Program-made: the position numbers and the translations under genes
Origin: Zootoca vivipara
Taxonomy: Eukaryota
NCBI RefSeq assembly: GCF_963506605.1
Contig: NC_083276.1
Location: 80,228,001 to 80,292,000 of the forward strand
Reading direction: 5' to 3'
Length of the DNA stretch: 64,000 nt
In this document: piece after piece, positions 35,983 to 63,903 of the stretch
How the letters are laid out: every line of letters begins with the position of its first letter
Position numbering within the stretch: position 1 is the first letter of the stretch
The notes under the pieces: model-generated
What the model saw: only the letters and a program-made list of their open reading frames with translations
Database searches by the model: none
What the model was told of the DNA's origin: nothing

Positions 35983-38900
35983 CTTTGGGGAGAAAAAAGG
36001 AAGAAGTGAAACAACAGTATAAGCTACCAATGTCTGAAGATTCTGTACACTGAGGTGCCCACCAGATGTTGGATTCCAACTCATCAGTGTCAGCCAACAA
36101 AGATAAGAGTTGTAGTCCAGCAAAATCTGCATGAAATCTCATTTGCTACCCCTGCTCAGAACTACAGAGTCTACAGATCTAGTAGGTTTTCCAATATCGT
36201 TTTGTCACTGGACTTAAAATTATTTGTCAAGCCCCATTTCAAAGACATCTCAGTTAGTGTGTTAAGTACAGAAAAGGAAACAAAATGGAATGCCTGCTTT
36301 GCAAACTAATGAAAGGCATTTTTATATGTCAGGGAGCAAGAATGTTTTTGGAGCTTCTTGTAAAATGGCAATGGGAAATCTTGGCCTGTGGCCCTAATTA
36401 GGCTGGTGCAGGTCCCATGAGGCTGTTGCCCACAACCCACAAGATGTCATAAGTGAAATGGGGCAGGTATGGACAAGGAAAGAACAATCGGGAGTTTAAA
36501 GTGAGTTCTCAAGTATTTCTTTGAAAGGCTCTCTGTCAGCACCAATCAGCTGATTAATGCAGACAGGGAGAAAAAACAACTAGCTGTTTGGAGCAACCAC
36601 TTTGAATCCTAACTGCTACCTCCAAATGGACTTCAAAGGTTCCCTGTAATGCTCATCAGCCGATTGGTGCAGAAAGTGCATCTTCAAAGAAGATTGTTGT
36701 ACAGTAACCCGTTTGAATGTTGATAGGTGTCATTTGATGTTTTATGCCATCAGGTAACTGACAGTTGGGTGGTCCCATGCATCTGTCAAAGCTGGGCCGT
36801 GGGAAGCAGGGGGAAGTAGAGTATTGGCCTACTGGCCAAATCCAGTTCCCCACCCCTGCCATAAAATATATAGTAAGCTATTATCATTAACTATACAGCA
36901 GTTCTGCAACCCAAAACTATACTTGTTAAGGAGGATGTTAAGTTCTACTAAATTCAGAAAGGGCTTACTGCAAATAAAAACACATATGTTTTAAAGGCAG
37001 AGTATACATTAGTTATACTCTTGATCAGCCTGACTGTTAGAGTTGGAATGTTTATATGGTGAACATGACAATTTTTAGACCCTGCTCATAGCTAAAACTG
37101 TATTTCAGATTGTCAGTGACAACCTTCTAGGACAATCACACACCTTTTCAGGACAGAGGTCAAAATATTACATGTACTGTCCTGCTGCATGTGGTCCAGA
37201 GGGCAGCAACATGAGAACAGTCCCTTTTCTGTGACAGCTCCCCACTTGTGGAATGTTCTCCCCAAAGAGGCTTGCCTGAGATCTTCATTTACATATATTT
37301 AGGCATCAGGCCAAATTCCCCCTTCTCCCAGGCTTTTGGCCTTTTTAACTGTGTGCACCGGCGGGGGTTATTGTTCTCGTTTGTTACTATGTTGTATATT
37401 TTTATGTTTTTATATTGTGAAATGCCCTTCATAAGACACCCCCCCAAATCACATAAGAGCCAATACAATTACAAGTGACCCATTCAAATACAGTGTTTTG
37501 CTTTACCTGTTGCCCAGTAGTAGATATCCCAATCATTGCTGGGCTCATTAATCAGGCGATCATAAAGATCCAGCTGTTGCTCATTCATTCGATTCAGATT
37601 CTCTTTGGCAAAGAAACTATGGGAAACAATAAAACAACATACTGGGATAACCAGACTAGGTAGGAAAAAAGATACAGATACCACAATGTAATAAAGATAC
37701 TACATTCCAGCTATGCAAGTGCCAGAAATTTCTGCACACCCATCCAGACAAACAAAAGGCATTATTACAGTTCAATGTCCAATTCCCTCCAGGCAAAAGC
37801 AATGAGGAGCAGGGCCACTGAGGGGTGTGGCCTTTGGAGAAGAGTCGCAGGAACTGGATAGAGGGGCCCAGAGGGAACATTCAGCCCCAGGTTCCCCTCT
37901 ACCAGTTCAAGATAAACCAATATCTGACTATACCCTTGATAACCTGTTTCTCCTTTTTCCTCCATAAGCCGATTTTCGTCTTTGTCCATGGAGTTTTCTT
38001 GGCAGGGATACTGGAGTGGCTTGACAGTTCCTTCTCCAGGTGACAGATGGTGACTGCAGTCACAAAATTAAAAGACGCCTGCTTCTTGGGAGAAAAGCAA
38101 TGACAAACCTAGACAGCATCTTAAAAAGCAGAGACATTACCTTGCCGACAAAAGTCCGTATAGTTAAAGCTATGGTTTAAGGTATGGAAGTGAGAGCTGG
38201 ACCATAAAGAAGGCTGATTGCCGAAGAATTGATGCTTTTGAATTATGGTGCTGGAGGAGACTCTTGAGAGTCCCATGGACTGATCAAACCTATCCATTCT
38301 GAAGGAAATCAGCCCTGAGTGCTCACTGGAAGGACAGATCGTGAAGCTGAGGCTCCAATACTTTGGCCACCTCATGAGAAGAGAAGACTCCCTGGAAAAG
38401 ACTTTGATGCTGGGAAAGATTGAGGGCACTAGGAGAAGGGGACAACATTGGATGAGATGGTTGGACAGTGTTCTCGAAGCTACAAACATGAGTTTGACCA
38501 AACTGCAGGAGGCAGTGCAAGACAGGAGTGCCTGGCGTGCTATGGTCCATGGGGTCACGAAGAGTCGGACACAACTAAACGACTAAAGCTGATTTTCAAT
38601 ATTTCATAACAGTGCTTCCTAGTGCTGTCCTTGGGTAATAGTATTTCCAAGTGCAAGGAGAGAGCAACATTTCTTTTTTTAAAATGTAGGTTTATGAAAT
38701 GATGCACAATATGGAGAAAGTAGACAACAATGATTTCGTACTTACTGTTTTCAGCTAAATTTCCAGTTGCATTTTATCAGTTTAAATTTGTCAACTGCCC
38801 AGAGAACATAGTTTCATAATTCTTATCTCTGTTTTATATACTTTATAAAGTGAAATAATCATAGAAAAGCTATACTAAAGGGGGGAGGAGATACTGGAGT

Positions 38901-40411: not shown

Positions 40412-40465
40412 ATGTCGGAAGGAGTGGACCTCATCGACATCTACGCTGACGAAGAGTTTAACCAG
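40412..40465 (+). CDS. CPSF7: CPSF7 first coding exon
   Basis: [18 protein letters not shown]|gtgag. Confidence 0.95.
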
Positions 40466-48562: not shown

Positions 48563-51500
48563 ACACACACACTATATATATCTACAGTTATGTCCCATTG
48601 TTACTGCATTCCAGCTTCTAGATAACGTTAGGCTGACAGGAATTATACATGTGTGTGCATAATGTGCATATTCATGTATTAGAATCCTTTCACGGTGCAT
48701 TTTTTTAAGCTAGTAAAAGATTGCAGTGTTAATCACAGAAGACTACAGTATAACTACCGGTACATTTTCAGAAGACCAGTGAAATATTGTTAGAGTTCCA
48801 ATATAATTGTTTGCTTCTGATAGTGACTCTTTAAGTGTTGTGAGGATGAAATAATACTGCATGATACCTAACTCCTCTGAAGAAAAATGTAGAGGCTGAT
48901 TTCTAGTGGAGTTCAGTATAAATCTTGACACAATCTGATTACCTTTCATGGAACAGCCTACAACATGATACTGCTCAAATAATCCAAACTAGGGAAAGAA
49001 ACCAAGAGGCCTTTCTGCCAAGTTGAGTGGCCTCTTATATAGGTTGGTGGTTATGCTATATGTGATAGTCTCCTTCACTGCATATATGCAACAAGGAAAT
49101 ACCCCTCATTGGAGCAGTGAGGAAAATGAGGTGGGTCTGCACACAGGGTAGATGGGGGGGGGGTTTAAAAATATGGTTTGATTGCCCAGTCCTCCACAAA
49201 GAATGGAGAAGCAAAACGTCTTGTGCAGTAATAGATGGCAGTGAAACATGCATTTTCCTCATCTCAGGGAAAATGATGGGATGCTTGGGGCTACATGAAA
49301 TAGCTAGTCCTACTATACTCTTTGCTCTTCCTTGCAACTAGCAAAAAGAGCATGTTTTTTGAGAAGCAGGTTTTACATTATTACTTAAATTCTAGAATTT
49401 ATTATTTGATATAGGTGTGCTACTATTCTGTTATGAAAAGAACTAATGTGGAGAATTGGCCCTGCTTTGCCTCTGCGTGTGCTCAGTGGTATCTTGTGTC
49501 TTCTAGGACTCTGAATTTAGTAATGCTGACCAGATGGATCTATATGACGACGTGCTAGCTGCCAGCTCACAACCTTCTGAAAGTTGCACTAGCAGTTCCG
49601 AGCCACCCCCCGAAAACCGGCAAGAGCAGTCTCCTAAGCCAAACAGCAAATCACCTGCTATCCTGTATACCTACAGTGGGCTGCGTAATAAGAGGGCTGC
49701 TGTTTATGTAGGCAGCTTCTCTTGGGTGAGTGTGTTCCATAATCGGAGCAGAAAGTAAAGGGCCTAACAAAAACAAAACATTTGTATGGAAAGGCTGCAT
49801 CTGCACTTTAATCTTACTACAGATGCACTGTTCTTTAATAGAGTACAGTGCCCCATGTGGGTGGGTGGGATTTCTGCTGCTTGCCAACCTCAGTCCTCAC
49901 AACACATTGGATAAATAACTAGCATTATTGTTCATTGTGACACATTGCTCTTTTTAGGGCATTTTTATCCTGCTTTTCTCATAAAGACTCAACAGTGGCT
50001 TCAGATAAATAAGTTGCAGCAACTGTGGATGAATTTTCTCCAGCAAGTATTTCGTACTATGCTAAAAAGCAGCACATCTCCGAGTTGGAGAATATGATGC
50101 TCTTGCATTAGCAGGGTAACTTTTAAGAGAAGAGGATTGGACACAACAAATCTAACACATTTAAGATACTTCAGAAAATATGATAATAGTAGAATTGAGG
50201 CCCTTAAAACACCATGATACAGACATTTTCACACAATTGTCTGTAGCTGGCATACAGGTATGAGAGTTTTCTCCTATGAATGAATCTCTTAGGACCTGAG
50301 TAAGTCATGTTGGGCCTGCTGTGTCATTGTATAGACTGATCACTGCCCTAAGTGCATGTAGTTCTCTTGAATACCTGAGTTAATCTGCCTGTGGTAGGTG
50401 TTGGGAAAGGGATTGCTGCTGCTGTTGCTCCTTCACTTTCTTGGATCTGTCTAGAACTTCTAGGAAGATACATGTTGACACATGTATGCACACACACATC
50501 CACAGCTCCAAAAGTGACTGTAGTGGGAGGGGTTGAATCAAATATTCCTTCATTAGACTAGCAGGAACAGTATAAGAGCTTGAGAAGGACGAGTTCTATT
50601 ACTAATATGATGTGTGTTCTCTAAAAGGTTTCAGGTTATAATATAATTTTCTGCCTCTTCATATATAGTGGACAACTGACCAGCAGCTGACCCGAATAAT
50701 CCGTTCTGTGGGTGTTTATGATGTGGTGGAACTCAAGTTTGCTGAGAACAGAGCCAATGGCCAGTCCAAAGGGTGAGCACTCCAAGACTGCTTCATAAAA
50801 GGACCCATCATGAGGGGCTGTTGTTGTGGGAGGAATGATCTAGGGACCAGTGTGGTTGATAATGGTGTGCACATAAGTCTGGTTTTCTTGCAATTTTTTA
50901 AGGTTGCTTTAGAAGTCTCTGTAACTGTCCAGTTTGGATGCCACTGCCTTCAAAGTAAATGGCTGCTTGTTATATGTGATTCAGGAAGGTGGGAGGCTCT
51001 GTCCCATTCTGCAGAGCAATCCCTGGACAATGTGCTATTTGCTGCTGCTCTTAATAATGGCTTTACCTTTGGAGGGCATGGAGCTGAAAATTCTGCACTG
51101 TTAATGACACTGTGCTTGTGGACAGCGGGGTTGGCCTGAGAAATCATTCAAATCAGGAATGGGAGAACCTTGAGCCTGTGGGCTACATCTGCCCCTCAGA
51201 GGATTCCCATCCAGCCTCCACAGCCTCTTGTCCTTGGCTCCTGGGCTGGCTGTGGAGGGCAGTGTTAGAAACTGGGATAGGAATACTAGGAGTGATGTGG
51301 GTGTCAAAACAAATTTGTAGGGGGCCATTTTTATTGCCCCCCCACCAGACCAGGCAGCCGCACAGTAAATAAAAATTAAAATTGCTGCCGGGTGAATCAG
51401 GGAGTCTGCAGTGTAGTGTGGCACCAAAAGTGGCACCTGGACATCTCCATCAAGTTGCAAAAAGCCAATTTCAAAATGTCACTGTCACCCGCTAATTTCA

Positions 51501-54500
51501 AACCCTGATGGAGCGAGCTCTTTATCTCCCAAGCTATCATGGAAGTGCAGCAGATTGGATGTGCAGGAACTTCATCTTGGATAAGTACTGCAGTGGGAGA
51601 TAAAGGGATGTAACCCCTTACCTCTTATTCCTGACATGGATTGGGCCCCCACACCTGCAATTTGCCAGGAGGGGGGGGCACTCACATAGGAACAAATGTG
51701 AGGTTTTCCCTCAATGCATCTGTGTGTATGCGAGAAAGATAAATGGAATGAATGGTGTGTGAGCTCATATGTGTGAGCAGATGAGGATGTGGAGGGTGGG
51801 GTGAGAGAGGGAGTGGTGTGGCCCTGTCTAATTTTTCCTCCCGTCCCACTCACCAATGCTATATAGCAGGGACATTTTGTAGGCCCTGGGTGGGGGAAGA
51901 TTTCTTGCCATGGATTAGATGGTTTTCCTTACTAGAAGTTCCTGACAGTCTTCAGTTGTTTTTCCTCTGTGACCAGGTATGCAGAAGTCGTGGTTGCCTC
52001 TGAAAACTCTGTCCACAAACTTCTGGAGCTGCTACCAGGGAAGTTTCTCAATGGAGATAAAGTGGAAGTGAAGTTGGCTACCCGGCAGAACCTTGCACAG
52101 TTTGAGGCTCAGGCTCGAAAAAGTAAGTTTAGATGGGGGTTGTGTTTGCTAAGTAGGGAACAAGGCAGAAATAAAGGGCATTGGTTAGGTCTTAGAGAAA
52201 CTTGAGCAGAGCTTTAAGCCAGCAACAATTTAAGTTACAGTTGGATGTGTGTGAATATCCAGGGAGTATCCATGTATATTTTCTTTTTCTGCTGCTGCTG
52301 AGTGACGCCTAAGTAGATTTTATTATCCCCTTCTATGTTGCATGATTTGAGGCACCCTTCAAACTGAATGGGCTTAAGCTCTTGAAGCTGTTATAGGTAG
52401 GACCACCCCCAGTTCCTCTCTGAACCTTCTCCAGAATTTGTGCAGCCCTGAAGAGGTAAGGTGCCCTGTATTTAGGGTTGCCAGACTCAATAGAGGACAG
52501 GACCTCTGTGCCTTTAATTGCCCTGCTCTCTTTTGAGTCTGGAAACCTTAAAGGGAAACCAGCAGACCCTTTGCTTGGAAATTAAACAAAGGTTCTGCTG
52601 GTTTCTCTTTAAGGTTTCCAGACTCAAAAGAGAGCAGAGCAATTAAAGGCACAGAAGTCCTGTCCACTATTGAGTCTGGCAACCCTACCTGTATTGGATG
52701 CAATGCTCCAGCTGGGGCCTTACCTCTTGGTCATATAATTCATTTATTATTATTTATAAAACAGATATCCCCTTTCTCCCAAAGGAGCCCAGGGTGACAA
52801 AGGAGGACCGTTTTGTATGATCCTGTCATAGTCTTAACTGACTATAAAGTTGCAGCGTTGTCAACTTTAGCACAGCTGCATTTTAATGGCCTCCATGTTC
52901 TGTGTCCCTTATCTCCATGGGGTGTCATGGTGCTGTGGTCCATTTCTCTGTGGTAGGAAGGTCAGTCAGTGTTGCTGAATCATAAGATGAAGCGGAGCTG
53001 CTTTTAGCCCTCATCAAGCTTTTCCCTGTGAAAAACTGCTTAAAGGGGCTTATCTTATCTTCACTAGGAGGTCGCGCTGGTGAATGGCAACGCCTGACAG
53101 TAACCATGGCACGTCACCATTTTTGACAAGGCCTTCGTAAATGACTTCCACCACTTTGTGATTCCTCGCCCAAAGGGCCTGAGAAATACAAATTTGCTGT
53201 TTTTAGTAATTTTATTTACACTCTGCCTCTCTCTAGCCCCCAAAGTGGCGAACTGTAATGCAGACAAGCCAGTACGATAAAGAAAAACACATGCACAAGT
53301 TAAACGTTTGACGTTCTCTTTATTGTACTCTCCTATTTATTACAAAGGAAAGCTAAAAGTGGCTTCCGTTCGGTGAACATGAAGTGAATTTTTAATGTAA
53401 TTCAGACACGTGCTGAGTTTGAAATATGAATGTTATTAGATTATCCCAGACTTGCTGTCACCAAGTCTCATGTGGTGATGGTATAACAGATTTCTGTGTC
53501 CCTAATTATTGTGTGTCATTGCAATTGTATGATCATGGTTTTTTTCTTTTGAAATGTTTCTCAGCTATATTTGCAATTAATTAATTTTGCCACATTGAGA
53601 CAAGATTGCAATATGTTTCAAAATCCATCTTCTCAACATTCTCTCCATGATTTTTTCCCTTAGTTCTTTTGATTATTGATTTCTTTCAATTATGTTTTAG
53701 ATTCTCTATATTGAATAAAGGTATTTTTTTTAAAAAAAATGTATCAAATCTCATTACATACTATAGTTGAGCTTATTGTACATTAAAATTCCAAATTAAG
53801 ATGACACAGCTTTTTTTAACCTGGAGTTATTGAAATAATATATTTTTGCTTTACGCAGACATTGTAAATCTTTGTAAATACTTCCTGTAATGCCCTTCCA
53901 TATTATTGCCATCTTGGTTTGTGTCAAATAAAGTTGACTCTAAGTACAGTACTTTGGTCAGCATGGCTTGATTATTTCTCTGGGGTCAATAACTCTTCAT
54001 TGGGAAGAATAAAGGTGTCATGTTTCCAGATTTAGGATGCTTTCTGACTTTGAGGCCAAGCAACTGGCCTGGTGGAGCAATGGTAGATAGTATTAATTGC
54101 CTTCCAGTACTTTATTGCCCCCTTGTTTTTTTTAATGTTGCGTTTATTAAGAATGTTGGTTTCTTAATTGTTGCCAGAAGTATTCATGGCAACTGAATCT
54201 AGTTTAATTCATTAGTCAGGATCTGCTGATGTATCTAAAACTGTATTGCTCTCAGAAGGACCATAGTTTTCTTCCATTCCACAGATAGTTGCTTATTTCA
54301 GTTGCTTATTTTATGTAGAAGCAGGTGCAGTTTGTGTTACAAACTAAGGTTCAAAGACTTCTCTGCCTCTGCATTTTGTATTACTTCTATGAGAATGGAA
54401 ATGTTGATTATTTTCTGGATGTAGTGGAAAACACTTAGTTTGCAATAGGTGTTCAGGAAGTAGTTCATTGACTTAAAAAGCAACTACCGTGTATATATAT

Positions 54501-57500
54501 AAGCCTGTTGATATTTGCCTTTATATAAAACACTGTATCCGCATATATTGCAAGGTAGTTGATATTGGCATATTAGGTTTTAATATTTCACTTTATTGAA
54601 GAATTCTACTAAAAGAACCAAATGTTCTGCTGAGTGCATTCACTAAGCAGTAGGTTCCTGAGGTCATTATTTCAGGGGACGGGAAGGAGTGGGAGTTAAG
54701 CATCTCTCCCAAAATTATGGGTCTTGAGGATTCTAATGTAATTTTGTAGTGTTAGAATGTTCAGGTTTCCACTCATTAGAATACTTATAATAGGAAAGGA
54801 GTAGGGACAACACTACAGTGGTACCTCAGGTTAAGTGCTTAATTGGTTCTGGAAGTCCGTACTCAACCTGAAGTGTACTTAACCCGAAGTATGACTGTAA
54901 TTGGTTCTGGAAGTCTGTACTTAACCTGAAGTGTACTTAACCTGAAGCTAACTTTCCCTTTGAAAATAATGGAAAGTGGATTAATCCGTTCCAGACGGGT
55001 CCGCAGAGTACTTAAATTGAAAATACTCAACCTGAAGCGTACTTAACCCAAGGTATGACTGTATAGCCAATTAGTGATTTTACTGAAGAAGGCCGTTCTT
55101 GCATAATCTAGTGCTTGTATAGTGTTAGCTAGAATTTCAGACACATTTTACATAATTAGTTAAGAGAATTAGATCAGTGAGAAGGCAATTAATGTACAGT
55201 TTTGTGACTGCTGCCTGTAGTTTTCAGAGTGTAGAACAATTGCTTTGTCTGCAGAAGGTTCCATAATTAATCCCTGGCATTGCCAGGTAGGATTGGCGTC
55301 TTCTCTGCAGTCCCAGAGAGCTACTGCCAGTCAGTGTAGTCCATACTGAACTAGATGTGTCAATCACAGAATCAGAATTGTAAATGTTCTGACTTGGTGT
55401 AAGTCAACTTCCAAGTTCCTAGTCATCAAATGATAACCCATTTGAAGTGTTACATTTGCACAGTGGACTTCCATTAACACAGGGAACTCTACTCATGCAG
55501 CATTGGATACAACACCGTCTATTTTAGTTGTCACTGTACCGAAGAGTGGGTTAGTCAAATATTCCCCTTATATTCAGCATGGTTTGATTATTTTTTATGC
55601 TGTCTGTCACATTTTCATTCTTTTCTCCTGAAGCTTCCTGATTTTGCTTTTTCTTAAATGAGAAAGTTCAATACATTTGTCTCTGATAGTATGTGATTTT
55701 CTAATCATCAGTTACATTAAAAATGAGTATGTTAATATATCTTTATACATAATATAGCATACTGACTATAACTGTGATGTAAACAACAAAGTCACCAGTT
55801 CAGATTTCACCTTGGCTATAAGCTCAATCACTTAGGTAAGCCACACCTTCTCAGCCTAAACACCTATCTACAATTTTTGCAATAAAGACCTGTCAAGTAG
55901 GATTATTAGCAAGTTGACTGTGCTAATACATAAAGCATTTTGAACACACTATAAGCGCTACATGAATCATAAGTATTACTTAATGCTCAGGCAAAATTGA
56001 TTTCACTGAAAGTGAACAATGTAAAATACACTCAAGACATAAGTAAAATGTTCTCAGTTCAGTTTGGACACACTTCTACTGTAAATTGTAATTAAAATTA
56101 AGCATTTATTTGGCATGTTATGCTGCCTGTCCATCTGACTCATAATCAATTCATGATACAACTGTCCCTGTCAACTCTGCACACAACACTTAAGAAAGCT
56201 CTTACAGGTCTCTTGGCCAAGATTGGGAATGCCCAGTTCCAGTGCAGGAAGGTATCTCTCTAGATCAGGCATCCCCAAACTCGGCCCTCCAGATGTTTTA
56301 GGACTACAACTCCCATTATCCCTAGCTAACAGGACCAGTGAGCAGGGATGATGGGAATTGTCCCCAAACATCTGGAGGGCCAAATTTGGGGGTGCCTGCT
56401 CTAGATACCTCAACATTTGTCCAAATCGGCCCAAAAATCTGTGTGCACATACCAGTGAAACCCACCTTTTCTCTCATGTATGAGATAAGAGTTCTGTTAT
56501 TTGGGCAAGGTGTTATTGCAATTCAGAGGCATGATTGTTGACATGGGTGTACTTACTGGAGAGCGGGGAGAGGGTTATTTTGTCAGAAAACTGACCTACC
56601 CAACTGCTACAGTGTTGAGCACTTTTCCTCTTCTGTGATGTCTGACAGGGGTGCCTCCGAGGGCTCACTCAAGGGATTCCTCCGACTCGGTAGATGGCCG
56701 AGCCACTCCGACAGAGAATGCTGTGCCGCCGCCACGCATTGAGAAGCCTCCTGTGTTGCCTTTCTTCAACCGCCCTCCTTCTGCGCTTCCTCTCATGGGG
56801 ATGCCACCTCCACCCATACCACCCCCTCCTCTCTCCTCAAGCTTTGGGGTTCCCCCTCCCCCTCCAGGAATCCACTACCAACACCTAATGCCCCCTCCCC
56901 CTCGACTTCCTCCACACCTCACTGTGCCACCTCCTGGGGCCGTGCCACCTGCGCTGCACCTCAACCCAGCCTTCTTTCCCCCACCCAATGCAGCAATGGG
57001 CCCCCCACCAGACACCTATAACAAGACCTCTGCAGCATACAACCACAGCAGGTGAGAGCAAGCCCATTCCCGGGAATCTGCCGGTGGGGGGGGGAATCAA
57101 AACTAAGCAGTACAAAGAACAGTAGCTAAGCCTTTTGTTTAGCAAGGCTGCAGCCCTAATTCTCCAAGGGCTTGGTTATTTTGTTTTTTATGCAAATGGT
57201 TTGACTAGACATGAAAGCAACACCTACTCCTTGGTGGTAGAAAATGTCTCGCATAGCACTAGGGCACGGCAGCTGACGACTTGGTTCTTAAAGGATGCTA
57301 CTTAATGCCCATTTTGGGGAGTGGGGCAGTACCTGGTCAGCCACACATTGCTCTTTCGGAAGGCCTTGAATTGCCATGTCTATGAATAAAGAACTGTGTC
57401 ATAGTTCTGCTTGAAGCTGTTTATCCTCTGTGTGTGATGGGTGTGTGTTTGTGTACTACAGCCGGGAACTGGTCCCATTGCCACCTCCTGTCAGTGATGC

Positions 57501-58196
57501 TGAATTTGAAGATATCATGAACAGGAATCGAGCAATTTCCAGCAGTGCCATTTCCAAAGCTGTGTCTGGTGCCAGTGCAGGTAACCAGAGCTGGCTTTTG
57601 CTACCTCTTTCCATTTCTCGCTCCTGGCCTCATTCTTACCATGCTGCCTTTGCTCTGTTATATTGCAGGGGACTACAGCGATGCCATTGAGACCCTGCTC
57701 ACAGCCATCGCTGTGATTAAACAGTCACGTGTCGCAAATGATGAGCGGTGTAGAGTCCTTATCTCTTCACTCAAGGATTGTCTTCATGGCATTGAAGCCA
57801 AGTCTTACAGCATGGGCAGCAGCAGCAGCTCCTCCAGGTGAGCTTCAGGCACAGTTATTGCCGAGTAATCCAGCTACTGTCACTCATGTTGCTGATGAGC
57901 GAGTCTCAGTTGTGCTCTGGTCCCCTTCCTGGGCTTTGTACAGCCAGGTAGGAATAAGTGCTTCTTGTAGGGGAAAGGGTCTCCTTTTTACAGCTTGCCA
58001 GTAACCAGATACCTCATTGTTTTCCAGAAAACGACACCGGTCTCGGGATAGATCACCCAGTCGATCTCGTGAGAGCAGCAGGAGGCACCGAGATGTGGTC
58101 CATAATGAAGATCGGCATGAGGACTATTTCCAGGAAAGAAGCCGGGAGCATGAGCGACATAGAGACAGGGACAGAGAAAGAGACCGACATCATTGA
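40412..58196 (+). CDS. CPSF7: Cleavage and polyadenylation specificity factor 7 (CFIm59); 8 coding exons, 460 aa
   Basis: Exons: 40412-40465 ([18 protein letters not shown]), 49507-49725, 50669-50772, 51977-52122 (RRM), 56649-57051 (Pro-rich), 57462-57580, 57669-57837, 58028-58196 (RS/RD/RE tail). GT-AG and phase-consistent. Non-coding exon 1 ends at 40000; exon 2 starts at 40355. Confidence 0.97.
43228..43493. mobile_element. PIF/Harbinger-type MITE
   Basis: TIR GGCCACATTCACACCATAC/GTGTGGTTTGAATGTGACC; 3-bp TSD TTA. Confidence 0.7.
44310..44450 (-). mobile_element. L2-like 3' end fragment
   Basis: reverse complement of the tail at 30915-31030. Confidence 0.7.
48256..48507. mobile_element. 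Tc1/mariner (Tigger-like) MITE
   Basis: TIR CAGTGGTACCTCGCAAGACGAAT/ATTCGTCTTGCAAGGCACCACTG; TA on the left; followed by (TC)n at 48515-48558. Confidence 0.8.
49507..49725 (+). CDS. CPSF7: CPSF7 coding exon 2
   Basis: [17 protein letters not shown]...AVYVGSFSW. Confidence 0.95.
50669..50772 (+). CDS. CPSF7: CPSF7 coding exon 3
   Basis: WTTDQQL...[13 protein letters not shown]. Confidence 0.95.
51977..52122 (+). CDS. CPSF7: CPSF7 coding exon 4
   Basis: [22 protein letters not shown]...FEAQARK. Confidence 0.95.
52473..52687. mobile_element. Palindromic hAT MITE
   Basis: TIR TAGGGTTGCCAGACTCAATAG; TSD CCTGTATT; near-perfect hairpin. Confidence 0.88.
52957..53955 (+). other. CPSF7: Putative alternative terminal (truncating) exon of CPSF7 with intronic poly(A) sites
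   Basis: acceptors before 52957 and 53068, each followed by an in-frame stop; AATAAA at 53714, 53927 and 54008; three TGTA at 53863, 53873 and 53886. Confidence 0.55.
54816..55061. mobile_element. Tc1/mariner (Tigger-like) MITE
   Basis: TA-CAGTGGTACCT...AGGTATGACTG-TA with an internal duplication. Confidence 0.75.
56266..56398. mobile_element. hAT MITE (CAGGCATCCCC family)
   Basis: TIR CAGGCATCCCCAAA/TTTGGGGGTGCCTG; TSD CTCTAGAT. Confidence 0.88.
56649..57051 (+). CDS. CPSF7: CPSF7 coding exon 5 (proline-rich)
   Basis: [13 protein letters not shown]...[11 protein letters not shown]. Confidence 0.95.
57462..57580 (+). CDS. CPSF7: CPSF7 coding exon 6
   Basis: [26 protein letters not shown]. 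Confidence 0.95.
57669..57837 (+). CDS. CPSF7: CPSF7 coding exon 7
   Basis: [42 protein letters not shown]. Confidence 0.95.
58028..58196 (+). CDS. CPSF7: CPSF7 last coding exon
   Basis: [17 protein letters not shown]...RDRERDRHH*; donor at 58202. Confidence 0.95.
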
Positions 58197-58760
58197 GAGA
58201 AGTGAGAGATATTTCCAGAGTGCTTTACCTTTCCCATCCTCTCCACCCCCACCCAGTGTATTTTCCTTTCCGAAAAGAGCGCCCTTCTCTTCAAGTTGAG
58301 TATCATCCCTCTTGTAGATGCGGGTTAGGTAAGGTTGATTTCCCTTATGCTCTGGAAGACTTTCCATGGCATAATCTCACACTTCAGTGAGTGGAATGGT
58401 CATGCATATATCTTAAGCTACCAGGGCAAATACATATTGTATTGTGTTCTCCATGCAGTATGTTTTGCTAGATGAGATTTTTCAAAAATAAAGGAATAGT
58501 CTGCTCCCTGATTGACTTGCACTTTGAGTACATGCTTGAGCTGTTTATTTTCTAACTTAGTAGATTTATAGTATATTCAGCTTGGCTCTGAATAACTATG
58601 TGTCTCAGGCCAACTATGCAACTTTGTCAGGGTACTTTTCCTTATTCCTTCTACAGTACTGTGACCAGTGGATTATTTCTGTAGGTTAGAACCAGATGCC
58701 CTGTTAAATGTGTCAAGGGCCCAGTCCATATATCGAAATAAGTCATGGTTACTATGAACT

Positions 58761-58988
58761 TTTGCCACCTCATGAGAAGAGAAGACTCCCTGGAAAAGAC
58801 CCTGGTGTTGGGAAAGATTGAGGGCACAAGGAGAAGGGGACGACAGAGGATGAGATGGTTGGACAGTGTTCTCGAAGCTACGAACATGAGTCTGGCCAAA
58901 CTGCGGGAGGCAGTGGAAGACAGGAGTGCCTGGCGTGCTCTGGTCCATGGGGTCACGAAGAGTCGGACACGACTAAACAACAACAACA
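58761..58988 (+). mobile_element. BovB/RTE 3' fragment in the CPSF7 3'UTR intron
   Basis: [20 protein letters not shown]; (CAA)n tail; TSD ACT(A/G)TGAACT. Confidence 0.88.
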
Positions 58989-60027
58989 ACTGTGAACTAG
59001 TAGCATGCTAATGCAAACTGCTCAGTAGCTGCCAGTTTGCTGCTGCCCTACCACGAAGGACAGCAAAAATCTGAACAAGACACAATCCACAAGTCAAAGT
59101 TTGTTCTTGATTTACTGACCATTGTTTAAGGGAAATAAGCTTTGATTCCAATGTGCATGTTAATGACAAGCCAATCTCCATGGTTTATTGCTCCCATCCA
59201 TGCAATGGGAGGAGAAGCAAAGTGGGAGTGCTTGGGCAGTTTTATTTTTAAGTTTGTGCAGAAAGCTACTTTTGCCCTTCCCGACTGTATTGATTGTGTC
59301 TGAGGCTGTACCTCTGCAAACATTAAATTCAGATTCAGACATCATTAGTGTGTTTAATTTATGGAATCCCTGCTGAGCCCAGCTGTGACTCACAGACGTA
59401 ACTATCTCTTTGAAGAGTTTTTACCGGCTCTGTGTTCATGTTTGCGGGTCTTGTTTGCCTCTTTGTAAAGCAAACCAATAAACCCAGCAAGAAATCCAAC
59501 TGACTCATGTTCCTTTGAATTCTTAGACCTACCTTGTAAGGGAGAGGCATAATGGAGAGAAATTGTAAATAAATAAATATCACATCTTTTATTTCAAGAG
59601 GGGCATCACAGACTAGTATTGGTAGAATAATTTCTCTAACTTGAAGATTAGTCAATTTTTTTCAGTGGCAATCTGCCTTGGGTGCCCTGGAATAAAAAGT
59701 GGAGTAGAAACTGCAAAAATAAGTAAAACATAGCCGCCTTGCTATCTCACCACCCTCTTTACTTCATGAATGCAACTAGCACCTAAGGTGGTGATGAGAG
59801 TCTGACTTGAGAGTAAGTTTGATTCAGTGGGTAAAGTGCTGAGTCTAGTCCAGTTCAGCCATGAGCTAGACAAGCCTGTAGCCTTGGTTCCCTATTGCAT
59901 GTGGAAATAACTGTGATTTCCCCATGGAGTTAACAGTCCAGGGTTAATGGGCAAAATTCTCAACAAACCTCTTTGAAAGTGCTATGGAATTTACAAGTGC
60001 TTACAATTTTGTTTTGTCTCTTTCTAG

Positions 60028-61995: not shown

Positions 61996-62951
61996 TTTTA
62001 TACTGCATTGTATGGCTTCTTTTCATTTTGTAACGATTTTGAATGCTGGGTGAGCTGTTTTCTAGAATCTCCACTAAATATGAGCGGGGGGGGGGCGGTG
62101 TGCGGGGAGACCCTGATATGGAAAAGAAGATGGATAGACAAGACAGGTGCCATATTTTGGCTGGGTAGTAGCCCTTGTACAACCATAGCTTTATGTATTA
62201 CTAAATTAGTTCCAAAACCACTTTATGTACACATATTAAAATGATTTTTAAAAAGCTATCTCTCAGTCATCTCCATTTAAAGGGGAGTGTCTGGTAGCAA
62301 ACCAAGGAAAGATTTGAGACCCTTGAGAATGTCTGCCAGTGTGTAATCAGTACACTGAATGAAGATTCGATGCTCAGCATCATTTTAAGTAGCTCCTTTA
62401 AAAAATATTTGCTCTGGAAAACATGAACAAAAATCACAGGTTTCATAAAAAGGGATAAGCGTTATGCTGAGCAGAGATAGGGAAATGAAGCCATGATGGA
62501 AACAGATGAAACTCAAACACTTTGAAAGGGGATTGTGCCTTTCACGTGAAATTGAATATTACAGGCAAGGATGCAGGGAAATATAATAGTATATAAGGGA
62601 TTTCTGTCTATGGCAGGAAAAGGTTCAGTTACAAGAATATTGTCCTGATTGCTAGTGGTATTCAGTGAAATGCTTCTAGGAATCATCTGCTTGCACAGAT
62701 GGTGTGTGTTTCACCTTCCTGAAGGTTTGTCATAAAAGGGCATTTGCCTGTGACTGGCGGATGAGGTGGTAGTACTTTCAGAATGCAGCTTGAGTGGTGA
62801 ACAGTCTGTGGGAGGGGCTTAATGCTGAGTGGGTGGGTTTACCTGGTTGCTAGGTGATGATTGTGATCTAAGGGACCAGGATTAATCTCAAATGAGTCCA
62901 GATAAGTGATCTGATGAATGGGTACCATTCAAGTCTCTTGTTATTCTCACC

Positions 62952-63257
62952 ATGACATACTCATTAGAATTTGGCCTTGTTAATGCGGCCAACCGGTACC
63001 TGACTGCTGAACCTTTCCGTTTCCAGGTGGCAGCCACAGGCAAGCAACTGAAGCCTCGCCAGTTGTGGATACTGCAGTTTGTGAGCCCACAGGGAGCTGG
63101 GGCAGCTGGCCCAGGAGAAGGAGCTGGCCAAAAGCTTCACCTGATCAGTGCACTGAAACGCTACTTGGCGGCTGACGCAAATGGAAAAGTCACCTGTGAC
63201 CAGGACAAACCAGGGCCTCAGACCTTCTTTCTCTTGCATCAGTATCCAGATGGCAAG
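62952..63257 (+). CDS. Fascin-like protein, coding exon 1
   Basis: ACCATG; LEFGLVNAANRYLTAEPFRFQV..LK.RQLW..RYLAADANGKVTC is fascin beta-trefoil 1; donor AAG|GTG. Confidence 0.88.
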
Positions 63258-63903
63258 GTGCTCTCTCTCACCCAGGCACAAGCATCCTATCTCTCAAGTG
63301 TAGCTTTATGTCCGATATTATTGGGCTGGAATTCTGGACAAAGAGGGCTAGGCAGAAATGAGGGCAGGTTTGAGCTCAACTTGCAGACTAGTTTGCTGTG
63401 GTGAGAAGCAGTGTCTTTTCTTAGTGTGCAAGTTTTTAGATTCTTGCGGGTAAGTCCAGGCAGCAAATTCCTGCACTCCAGTGCTGTAAAGTACATCAGG
63501 AAGAGTGCAAAATGTCCCTGGACACCCCCCCCCCCATGGTCTCCTTGGGAAGCCAGTCACGTGAGCCAAAGCTCTTTGCCCCTGTTGGCCAAACAGTATG
63601 ATAGTCAGCCACTATGGGCTGAAGGGGAGAAAATGTGTCTGAATAGCTTATTTGAGTCCCTGTGCTAAGAGTTGCCTGGTGTATCCTTCAAGGTGCCCTA
63701 GCCACTTCCCACCCACAACTGGAAACAACTGTAGCACAATGGAACTTGGGTGATCATGGCAACTCCATAAGCCCAAAGGTGTAACGTAATTGGTGTAATG
63801 ATACCTGAGTTTTTTCTGCCATGTTCTTTGCTCTCACTGAGAGTGTTCCTGCTTTTCTGGTCTTGGGCAATGTAGCTGACCAGACATCCTTCCCTCCCTG
63901 CAG

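Follow-up and report, generated by a model that had tools for sequence, protein, structure and literature searches.

A truncating, probably terminal alternative exon of CPSF7 in lacertid lizards, a candidate feedback element of CFIm

Background

CFIm is a main regulator of 3' UTR length, and for the balance of its subunits a regulatory mechanism may exist (PMC12802250). Intronic brakes have been described for several other 3'-processing genes. In CSTF3 (CstF-77), a core 3'-processing gene, a poly(A) site in the early intron 3 removes the downstream coding exons; this site is conserved among vertebrates, depends on a weak donor and yields no apparent protein (PMC3708835). Premature cleavage at PAS1 in intron 1 of PCF11 lowers the amount of this full-length 3'-end factor; depletion and deletion experiments, carried out in human and in zebrafish, demonstrated its autoregulation, and the short peptide is given as undetected (PMC6458999). 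Early polyadenylation of RBBP6 leaves an N-terminal interaction domain without the effector region, and a dominant-negative action is ascribed to the resulting short protein (cited in PMC7471841). For Cpsf6, too, the amount of a large CFIm subunit is determined by RNA processing: skipping of exon 6 under the control of SRSF3 leads to premature stops and thus to unproductive splicing (PMC7948361).

The CPSF7 exon described here resembles the intronic brakes of CSTF3, PCF11 and RBBP6, with putative autoregulation. CPSF7 is a core 3'-processing gene as well, and its short form loses the RSLD and the RS/RE tail. There are also clear differences. Unlike the CSTF3 site, the CPSF7 exon is spliced via an acceptor of its own from a shared donor and retains a folded domain, and its feedback is a proposal. 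Compared with PCF11, with its evidence from fish and mammal, autoregulation of CPSF7 is a proposal made from lizard sequence and RNA. The short CFIm59 is a predicted protein whose dominant-negative action is putative, in contrast to that of RBBP6, and compared with Cpsf6 the element is a last exon and resides in the paralog. Among the titles and abstract openings of the literature we found neither an intronic last exon nor autoregulation described for CPSF7. The gene was also not found in the supplements of PMC5928244, PMC9458458, PMC9937581, PMC6169888 and PMC10394034, blanks which say little.

Results and Discussion

Host gene and layout of the intron

The window, i.e., the whole stretch of 64,000 nt that was analysed, is part of a 1.44-Gb genome. 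A first-pass annotation made from the letters alone had assigned the host gene to CPSF7, coding for CFIm59. This assignment is borne out by protein matches and by exon-by-exon tblastn with the full-length Podarcis protein P0223, in which most exons were matched at 95–100%; the gene is single-copy, its RRM exon matching the genome once. Among 11 named full-length proteins, the one from Zootoca vivipara comes nearest (380 of 382 aligned residues), which makes the animal a lacertid lizard. The positions given in that annotation for the donor, two AG acceptors, stops, TGTA and AATAAA motifs all proved correct when checked in the sequence, an AG dinucleotide preceding both 52957 and 53068. The exons needed here are:

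40412..40465, + strand: first coding exon of CPSF7, start codon at 40412 (tblastn with Podarcis P0223)
51977..52122, + strand: RRM-completing exon, whose donor is shared by the alternative and the normal exon (sequence, tblastn, RNA joints)
56649..57051, + strand: exon joined next in normal splicing, codes for the proline-rich region and competes with the alternative exon (joint 52122-56649, tblastn)

The coding part upstream of the intron 52123-56648 amounts to 174 codons plus one base, the donor past 52122 reads AAA/GTAAGT, and the normal acceptor 56649 is located 2.7 kb beyond the probable poly(A) site of the alternative exon. About 2 kb of this intron had been called free of any recognisable transposon. 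This holds for 52688 to about 54810, but the same intron contains a MITE as well as other repeats, around 54812-55065 and 56259-56405.

Splicing into the alternative exon

Eight out of 22 listed RNA runs were mapped on 50600-57600; from every raw run, roughly 6% of the reads were used. X20, X21 and X22 are raw stranded reads with the same species label from one study; X1, X5, X6, X11 and X12 are contigs whose RNA status is guessed, but in which GT..AG joints are present. Three features have to be considered:

53068..53952, + strand: alternative last exon of about 885 nt, consisting of a 19-codon tail and about 825 nt of 3' UTR, 3' end approximate (joint 52122-53068 in X21, X22, X1, X5, X11, X12; X1 contig end)
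53124..53126, + strand: TGA stop of the short form (sequence)
52957..52985, + strand: upstream acceptor and short frame (TAA 52983-52985), without RNA support (listed joints of 8 runs; contigs)

The joint 52122-53068 (GT..AG) was found in 6 of the 8 runs; these represent four of the five studies and four of the five organism labels. In X22 it is covered by 32 reads with 22 different starts, compared to 24 reads with 19 starts for the normal joint 52122-56649, which corresponds to an alternative share of 0.57 (95% interval 0.44–0.69, reads taken as independent). For X21 the figures are 4 reads from a single start versus 0 for the normal joint. These raw reads reach up to 72 (X22) and 61 (X21) letters on the short side of the alternative joint; in the contigs, both the alternative and the normal joint have 29 letters there. 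Depth at the alternative versus the normal joint, which in contigs is a poor measure of expression level, was 14.1 versus 44.9 in X1 (share 0.24), 32.5 versus 76.7 in X5 (0.30), 74.7 versus 47.1 in X11 (0.61) and 81.2 versus 47.8 in X12 (0.63). The alternative joint was absent from the listed joints of X20, where the normal joint itself is represented by just 1 read, and in X6 (organism C) it had 0 against a normal depth of 145.5. That an alternative CPSF7 exon exists is almost certain, and with a quarter to over half of the CPSF7 joints in several lizard samples it constitutes a concrete and testable element.

The first-pass annotation had proposed two acceptors and suggested searching RNA-seq data for both junctions. 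The one at 53068 was confirmed as described; a joint 52122-52957 was found among the listed joints of none of the 8 runs, contigs of X6 and X11 cross 52957 unbroken, and this acceptor is rejected. In a folding prediction, moreover, little of its pyrimidine tract is left unpaired (fraction 0.25 versus 0.57 at 53068), which is weak evidence. An internal cassette exon at 53068 is likewise rejected: a joint leading from 53068-54100 on to 56649 was absent among the listed joints of the 8 runs, and the sequence holds no good donor inside the alternative exon.

As a separate observation, X6 has unspliced contigs over 52094-54082 with a depth of 13–20, compared to 4–6 just past them and about a tenth of the depth at the normal joint. 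This intron cover may be pre-mRNA or a retained-intron form that ends in the same region.

The 3' end

Three AATAAA hexamers are located in or close to the alternative exon:

53714..53719, + strand: upstream AATAAA beside a run of T/A; the 80 nt before it are free of TGTA (sequence; X12 depth)
53927..53932, + strand: AATAAA, likely the poly(A) signal mainly used, with a predicted cleavage site around 53950 (sequence, RNA cover)
54008..54013, + strand: downstream AATAAA, possible minor site (sequence; X6 contig to 54082)

The exon had been proposed to end at the AATAAA at 53927, and the RNA cover fits this. A contig of 915 nt in X1 stops at 53952, that is 20 nt past this hexamer, and a contig of X11 stops at 53896, the rest of the bin being empty in both cases. 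In X20 the sense depth falls from 20.8 to 6.3 and then 0.1 across 53642-54343, with 7 molecules starting at 53934. The 3' end is therefore likely to be near 53950, as the cover of these three runs stops at about 53900–53950. Altogether the contig ends vary (53630, 53828, 53896, 53952, 54082): X5 stops at 53828, followed by a depth of 4.8, X6 reaches 54082, and in X12 the depth drops from 114 to 22 past 53630. The drop in X12 may be due to use of the AATAAA at 53714, where most transcripts of organism E possibly end; alternatively, it may reflect priming on an A run close by. Oligo(dT) mispriming was rejected for the end at 53927, with a maximum of 8 A per 20 nt in 53930-54100, and is possible at the A run near 53730. 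Among the loose read ends displayed, none carried a poly(A) tail.

UGUA motifs and the proposed feedback

Upstream of the likely main signal lies the following element:

53863..53890, + strand: three TGTAA motifs, candidate CFIm25 sites (sequence; consensus)

The TGTA at 53863, 53873 and 53886 are at -64, -54 and -41 from the AATAAA at 53927. Counted from the predicted cleavage at 53950 they are at -87, -77 and -64 and thus inside the window of -100 to -41 before cleavage where UGUA of CFIm-activated sites are found (PMC4407891). Three TGTA within 80 nt upstream occur at 1 of 55 plus-strand and at 0 of 53 minus-strand AATAAA in the window. Such a cluster appeared in 28 of 3000 dinucleotide shuffles of 53127-54100, a test that was picked after the cluster had been seen. 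The base composition is less informative. The region had been described as AT-rich in the manner of a 3' UTR; AT-rich it is, but the exon with 34% GC and 10.2 TGTA/kb is not distinctive in either respect compared with the downstream intron (36% GC, 10.2–10.6 TGTA/kb). The second TGTA also belongs to a full Pumilio-type element at 53873-53880; others occur at 54490 and 59564.

The joint and its high share, sense cover up to about 53950, the reading frame and the constraint among close relatives (see below) were all observed directly. The reading we favour, with a probability of roughly one half, is that the alternative exon at 53068 ends at the signal at 53927, that it would encode an RRM-only CFIm59 of 193 aa and that, through it, CFIm activity exerts a negative feedback on the gene. 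CFIm25 would bind the three UGUA 64–87 nt before the cleavage site, and the RS/RE tail of the CFIm large subunit would link the poly(A) site to the acceptor 53068, so that a last exon could be defined before transcription has covered the 2.7 kb to the normal acceptor. More CFIm would then lead to more of the short form and to less full-length CFIm59; the short mRNA would escape decay, and the short protein would still bind CFIm25, without bringing the activating tail.

The literature on a feedback set by CFIm points both ways. CFIm25/59 prefers a proximal site in Pten (PMC9458458), and a contact of CFIm with U2AF2 (U2AF65) is stated in PMC8139829 to be specific to CFIm59; this contact could help to define the last exon considered here. 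On the other side, CFIm subunits counter intronic polyadenylation genome-wide (PMC7471841), CPSF7 "does not stimulate CPA" (PMC7948361), knockdown of CFI-59 caused no substantial 3' UTR shift (PMC4407891), and several reports find little or no activation by CFIm59 (PMC7948361, PMC8989530, PMC4407891). Human CPSF7 protein was unchanged in CPSF6-knockout A549 cells (PMC12802250) and lower in CPSF6-deficient fibroblasts (PMC9937581). No de-repression is visible in these human protein data, which are confounded by subunit stability and come from a gene that may lack the exon.

It is somewhat unlikely that the exon is a real attenuator which senses 3' processing or splicing in general (PCF11, CstF, U1, U2AF, elongation rate) rather than CFIm specifically, in which case the effect of CFIm on it could even be repressive. 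All factors tested on the intronic site of CSTF3, CFI-25, -59 and -68 among them, affected its use (PMC3708835), WDR33 and RBBP6 are examples of further 3'-processing genes under attenuation by PCF11 (PMC6458999), and the mostly opposing action of CFIm on intronic sites mentioned above agrees with such a sensor, as does the fact that UGUA is common throughout this AT-rich intron. However, it is unusual to find three closely spaced UGUA at the appropriate distance, and the enclosing inhibitory layout of UGUA described in PMC7948361 is absent at 53927, because no TGTA follows within 300 nt downstream.

The predicted short protein

The RRM-only product that had been postulated is supported, as a predicted protein, by its frame, a domain match and a structure match. 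The predicted short form has 193 aa and retains the Pfam RRM at 84-155. Lost are the RSLD (322-423), the proline-rich part, 13 of 14 RS/SR and all 19 of 19 RE/RD-type dipeptides. It covers residues 48-175 of the stretch 48-176 that was matched to PDB 3n9u_C, presumably the complex of CFIm25 with the CFIm59 RRM; the RRM and CFIm25 are a textbook pair. If made, such a protein would be a natural tail-less CFIm59, and we presume from CPSF6 that loss of the tail may also remove a nuclear import signal. Junction-dependent decay would not apply to a stop in the last exon, therefore the short mRNA would escape it, which agrees with the high share of the alternative joint.

For the 19-residue tail, a search with 52986-53123, weak for such a short peptide, yielded homologs among 0 of 67 candidates at E<=10, and on this result a conserved coding role of the tail is rejected. 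The tail peptide differs in birds and frog, which suggests that what counts is the truncation rather than the residues it adds.

This bears on another possibility, namely that splicing factors select the exon as an isoform regulated by tissue or lineage, which is maintained for the sake of a stable short CFIm59 or of its 3' UTR, without feedback. We regard this as quite improbable, with the tail peptide not being common to birds or frog and the short protein being a prediction. It would be in line with the share ranging from 0 to 0.63 across runs, with a constraint that spans the whole 3' UTR, with one UGUA doubling as a Pumilio-type element, and with a transcript that is abundant, unlike the CSTF3 short forms, for which no protein is apparent (PMC3708835).

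Constraint among close relatives

Divergence was counted in a subset of contig pieces, with gaps uncounted. The region of the alternative exon has 78 differences in 3333 nt (2.3%), the level of the coding exon (28 in 1203 nt, 2.3%), compared to 30 in 974 nt (3.1%) for the first 350 nt of the intron and 309 in 5742 nt (5.4%) for other intron pieces. All four runs, which are not independent, agree in that the exon diverges less than the other intron pieces (Fisher p 0.0003, 1e-6, 0.037 and 0.0026). In reading these counts it has to be considered that the runs share the lineage of the window, that the control pieces are of low depth and may contain errors, and that the piece from X6 extends beyond the exon. 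Among close lacertid relatives, the alternative exon is under constraint at the level of coding sequence. Neutral leakage, in which an AT-rich intron happens to contain a cryptic acceptor and a poly(A) signal arisen by chance, can hardly be the explanation: its composition equals that of the downstream intron, the exon is seen in close relatives alone and the divergence control consists of low-depth contigs with possible errors, but a single exact acceptor is used under four organism labels in up to about 60% of joints, and the exon has half the divergence of the other intron in each of the four runs.

Vertebrate conservation of the intron had been named as a check. There is constraint among close lacertid relatives, but no bird or mammal peptide fits 52900-54100 among 3795 peptide windows, and birds use another exon. 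Scans of metagenome and prokaryote genome contigs for orthologous intron DNA confirmed none of 147 and none of 58 stretches. The exon is shown in lacertid lizards only, with related truncations in birds, and relevance for mammals is not implied.

An intron element common to lizards and birds

Part of the intron further upstream does have a counterpart in birds:

52358..52720, + strand: intron element common to lizards and birds, overlaps the bird truncating exon (peptide fits to bird proteins)
52435..52455, + strand: candidate micro-exon of 21 nt with strong-looking acceptor and donor, would bring a TGA in frame (sequence)
52473..52687, no strand: palindromic MITE with 104-nt inverted arms (sequence; contig depth)

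Three pieces, 52358-52390, 52414-52467 and 52688-52720, are collinear with bird peptides across the MITE. Their unavoidable mismatches are 4 of 33, 4 of 54 and 5 of 33, while shuffled peptides reached at best 6, 16 and 7. The fitting peptides are the tail of a pigeon form and the mis-predicted read-through P0049 of a sandgrouse; of the 11 best fits among the windows tested, 9 were to a P0049 stretch, 1 to the pigeon tail and 1 was at background level. With its low-complexity filter on, tblastn missed this intron match, and with the filter off it was found. Judged by these fits, lizards and birds share a part of the CPSF7 intron that lies upstream of the cassette proposed in the first-pass annotation, and the element 52358-52720 may be an older control element. 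No joint to the micro-exon 52435-52455 was among the listed joints of the 8 runs.

The MITE sits inside the bird-shared element and is flanked by a target-site duplication of 8 bp (52465-52472, 52688-52695), from which we assume it to be hAT-like. It is likely recent, because its cover is about nil in the runs of four related organisms.

Truncated CPSF7 in birds, frog and mammals

A set of 367 proteins obtained from searches was compared across vertebrates. The bird-type short CPSF7 has 192 aa, with an 18-residue tail after the same junction (P0004, P0209 and P0219 from Logan; P0123 named Haliaeetus). A pigeon form has 203 aa (P0202, PKK16953.1; P0062), and its tail looks like another frame of the exon used in the 192-aa form. 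This bird exon, which may be a last exon or a poison cassette, is located about 175 nt into the intron, as seen in the genomic read-through P0178. Going by these protein sequences, birds truncate CPSF7 after the same junction through a different, upstream exon. The end of the 18-aa bird tail gave nothing above shuffles in the lizard intron (6/27), nor was there a match for the frog tail (23/63). The latter belongs to Xenopus tropicalis AAI67355.1 (P0126, 195 aa), which ends past the RRM in what looks like an intron read-through. Lacertids possess a real, abundant and constrained truncating CPSF7 exon, and birds a related but different truncation.

A wider reading is that a control point after the RRM is old in tetrapods and that lizards, birds and frogs have each come to use an exon of their own there. 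By truncating its own mRNA, CFIm59 would then yield plenty of an RRM-only subunit, which would bind CFIm25 and damp the UGUA-driven choice of distal sites throughout the transcriptome, acting as a CFIm inhibitor in addition to the feedback loop. We consider this reading unlikely.

Among mammals, the sequences P0100 and P0125 are spliced upstream and then read into the intron; they may be mere intermediates. A nine-residue extension at the same junction, in frame into the intron, was noticed in P0100, P0115 and their kin, therefore the donor region is alternatively used in mammals, too. Named mammalian short forms of CPSF7, including human, have 93–102 aa (P0235-P0242, P0247) and stop earlier, at the start of the RRM, which hints at unproductive splicing further upstream in the gene. 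One of these 93–102-aa forms is common to 34 UniRef entries across Boreoeutheria.

For human CPSF7, two 3'-end sites with a balance shifted in CPSF6 knockouts are given in PMC12802250, in a table that may cover 3' UTR sites alone. Of the 7 occurrences of the gene in the table of PMC9159357, the 2 inspected are both in the 3' UTR; the five others could include an intronic site, and databases of the PolyA_DB type may already list the orthologous site.

Other features of the window

In five runs, low-depth contigs together with a few raw reads were seen over the next intron 57052-57459 (at 57089-57488), a cover that represents mild retention or pre-mRNA. A LINE-derived fragment, which we take to be BovB-like, is present in two copies, 38124-38583 and 58654-59008, one of them within the CPSF7 3' region. 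Downstream of CPSF7, an open frame on the plus strand at 62910-63401 reads like the start of a fascin-type protein.
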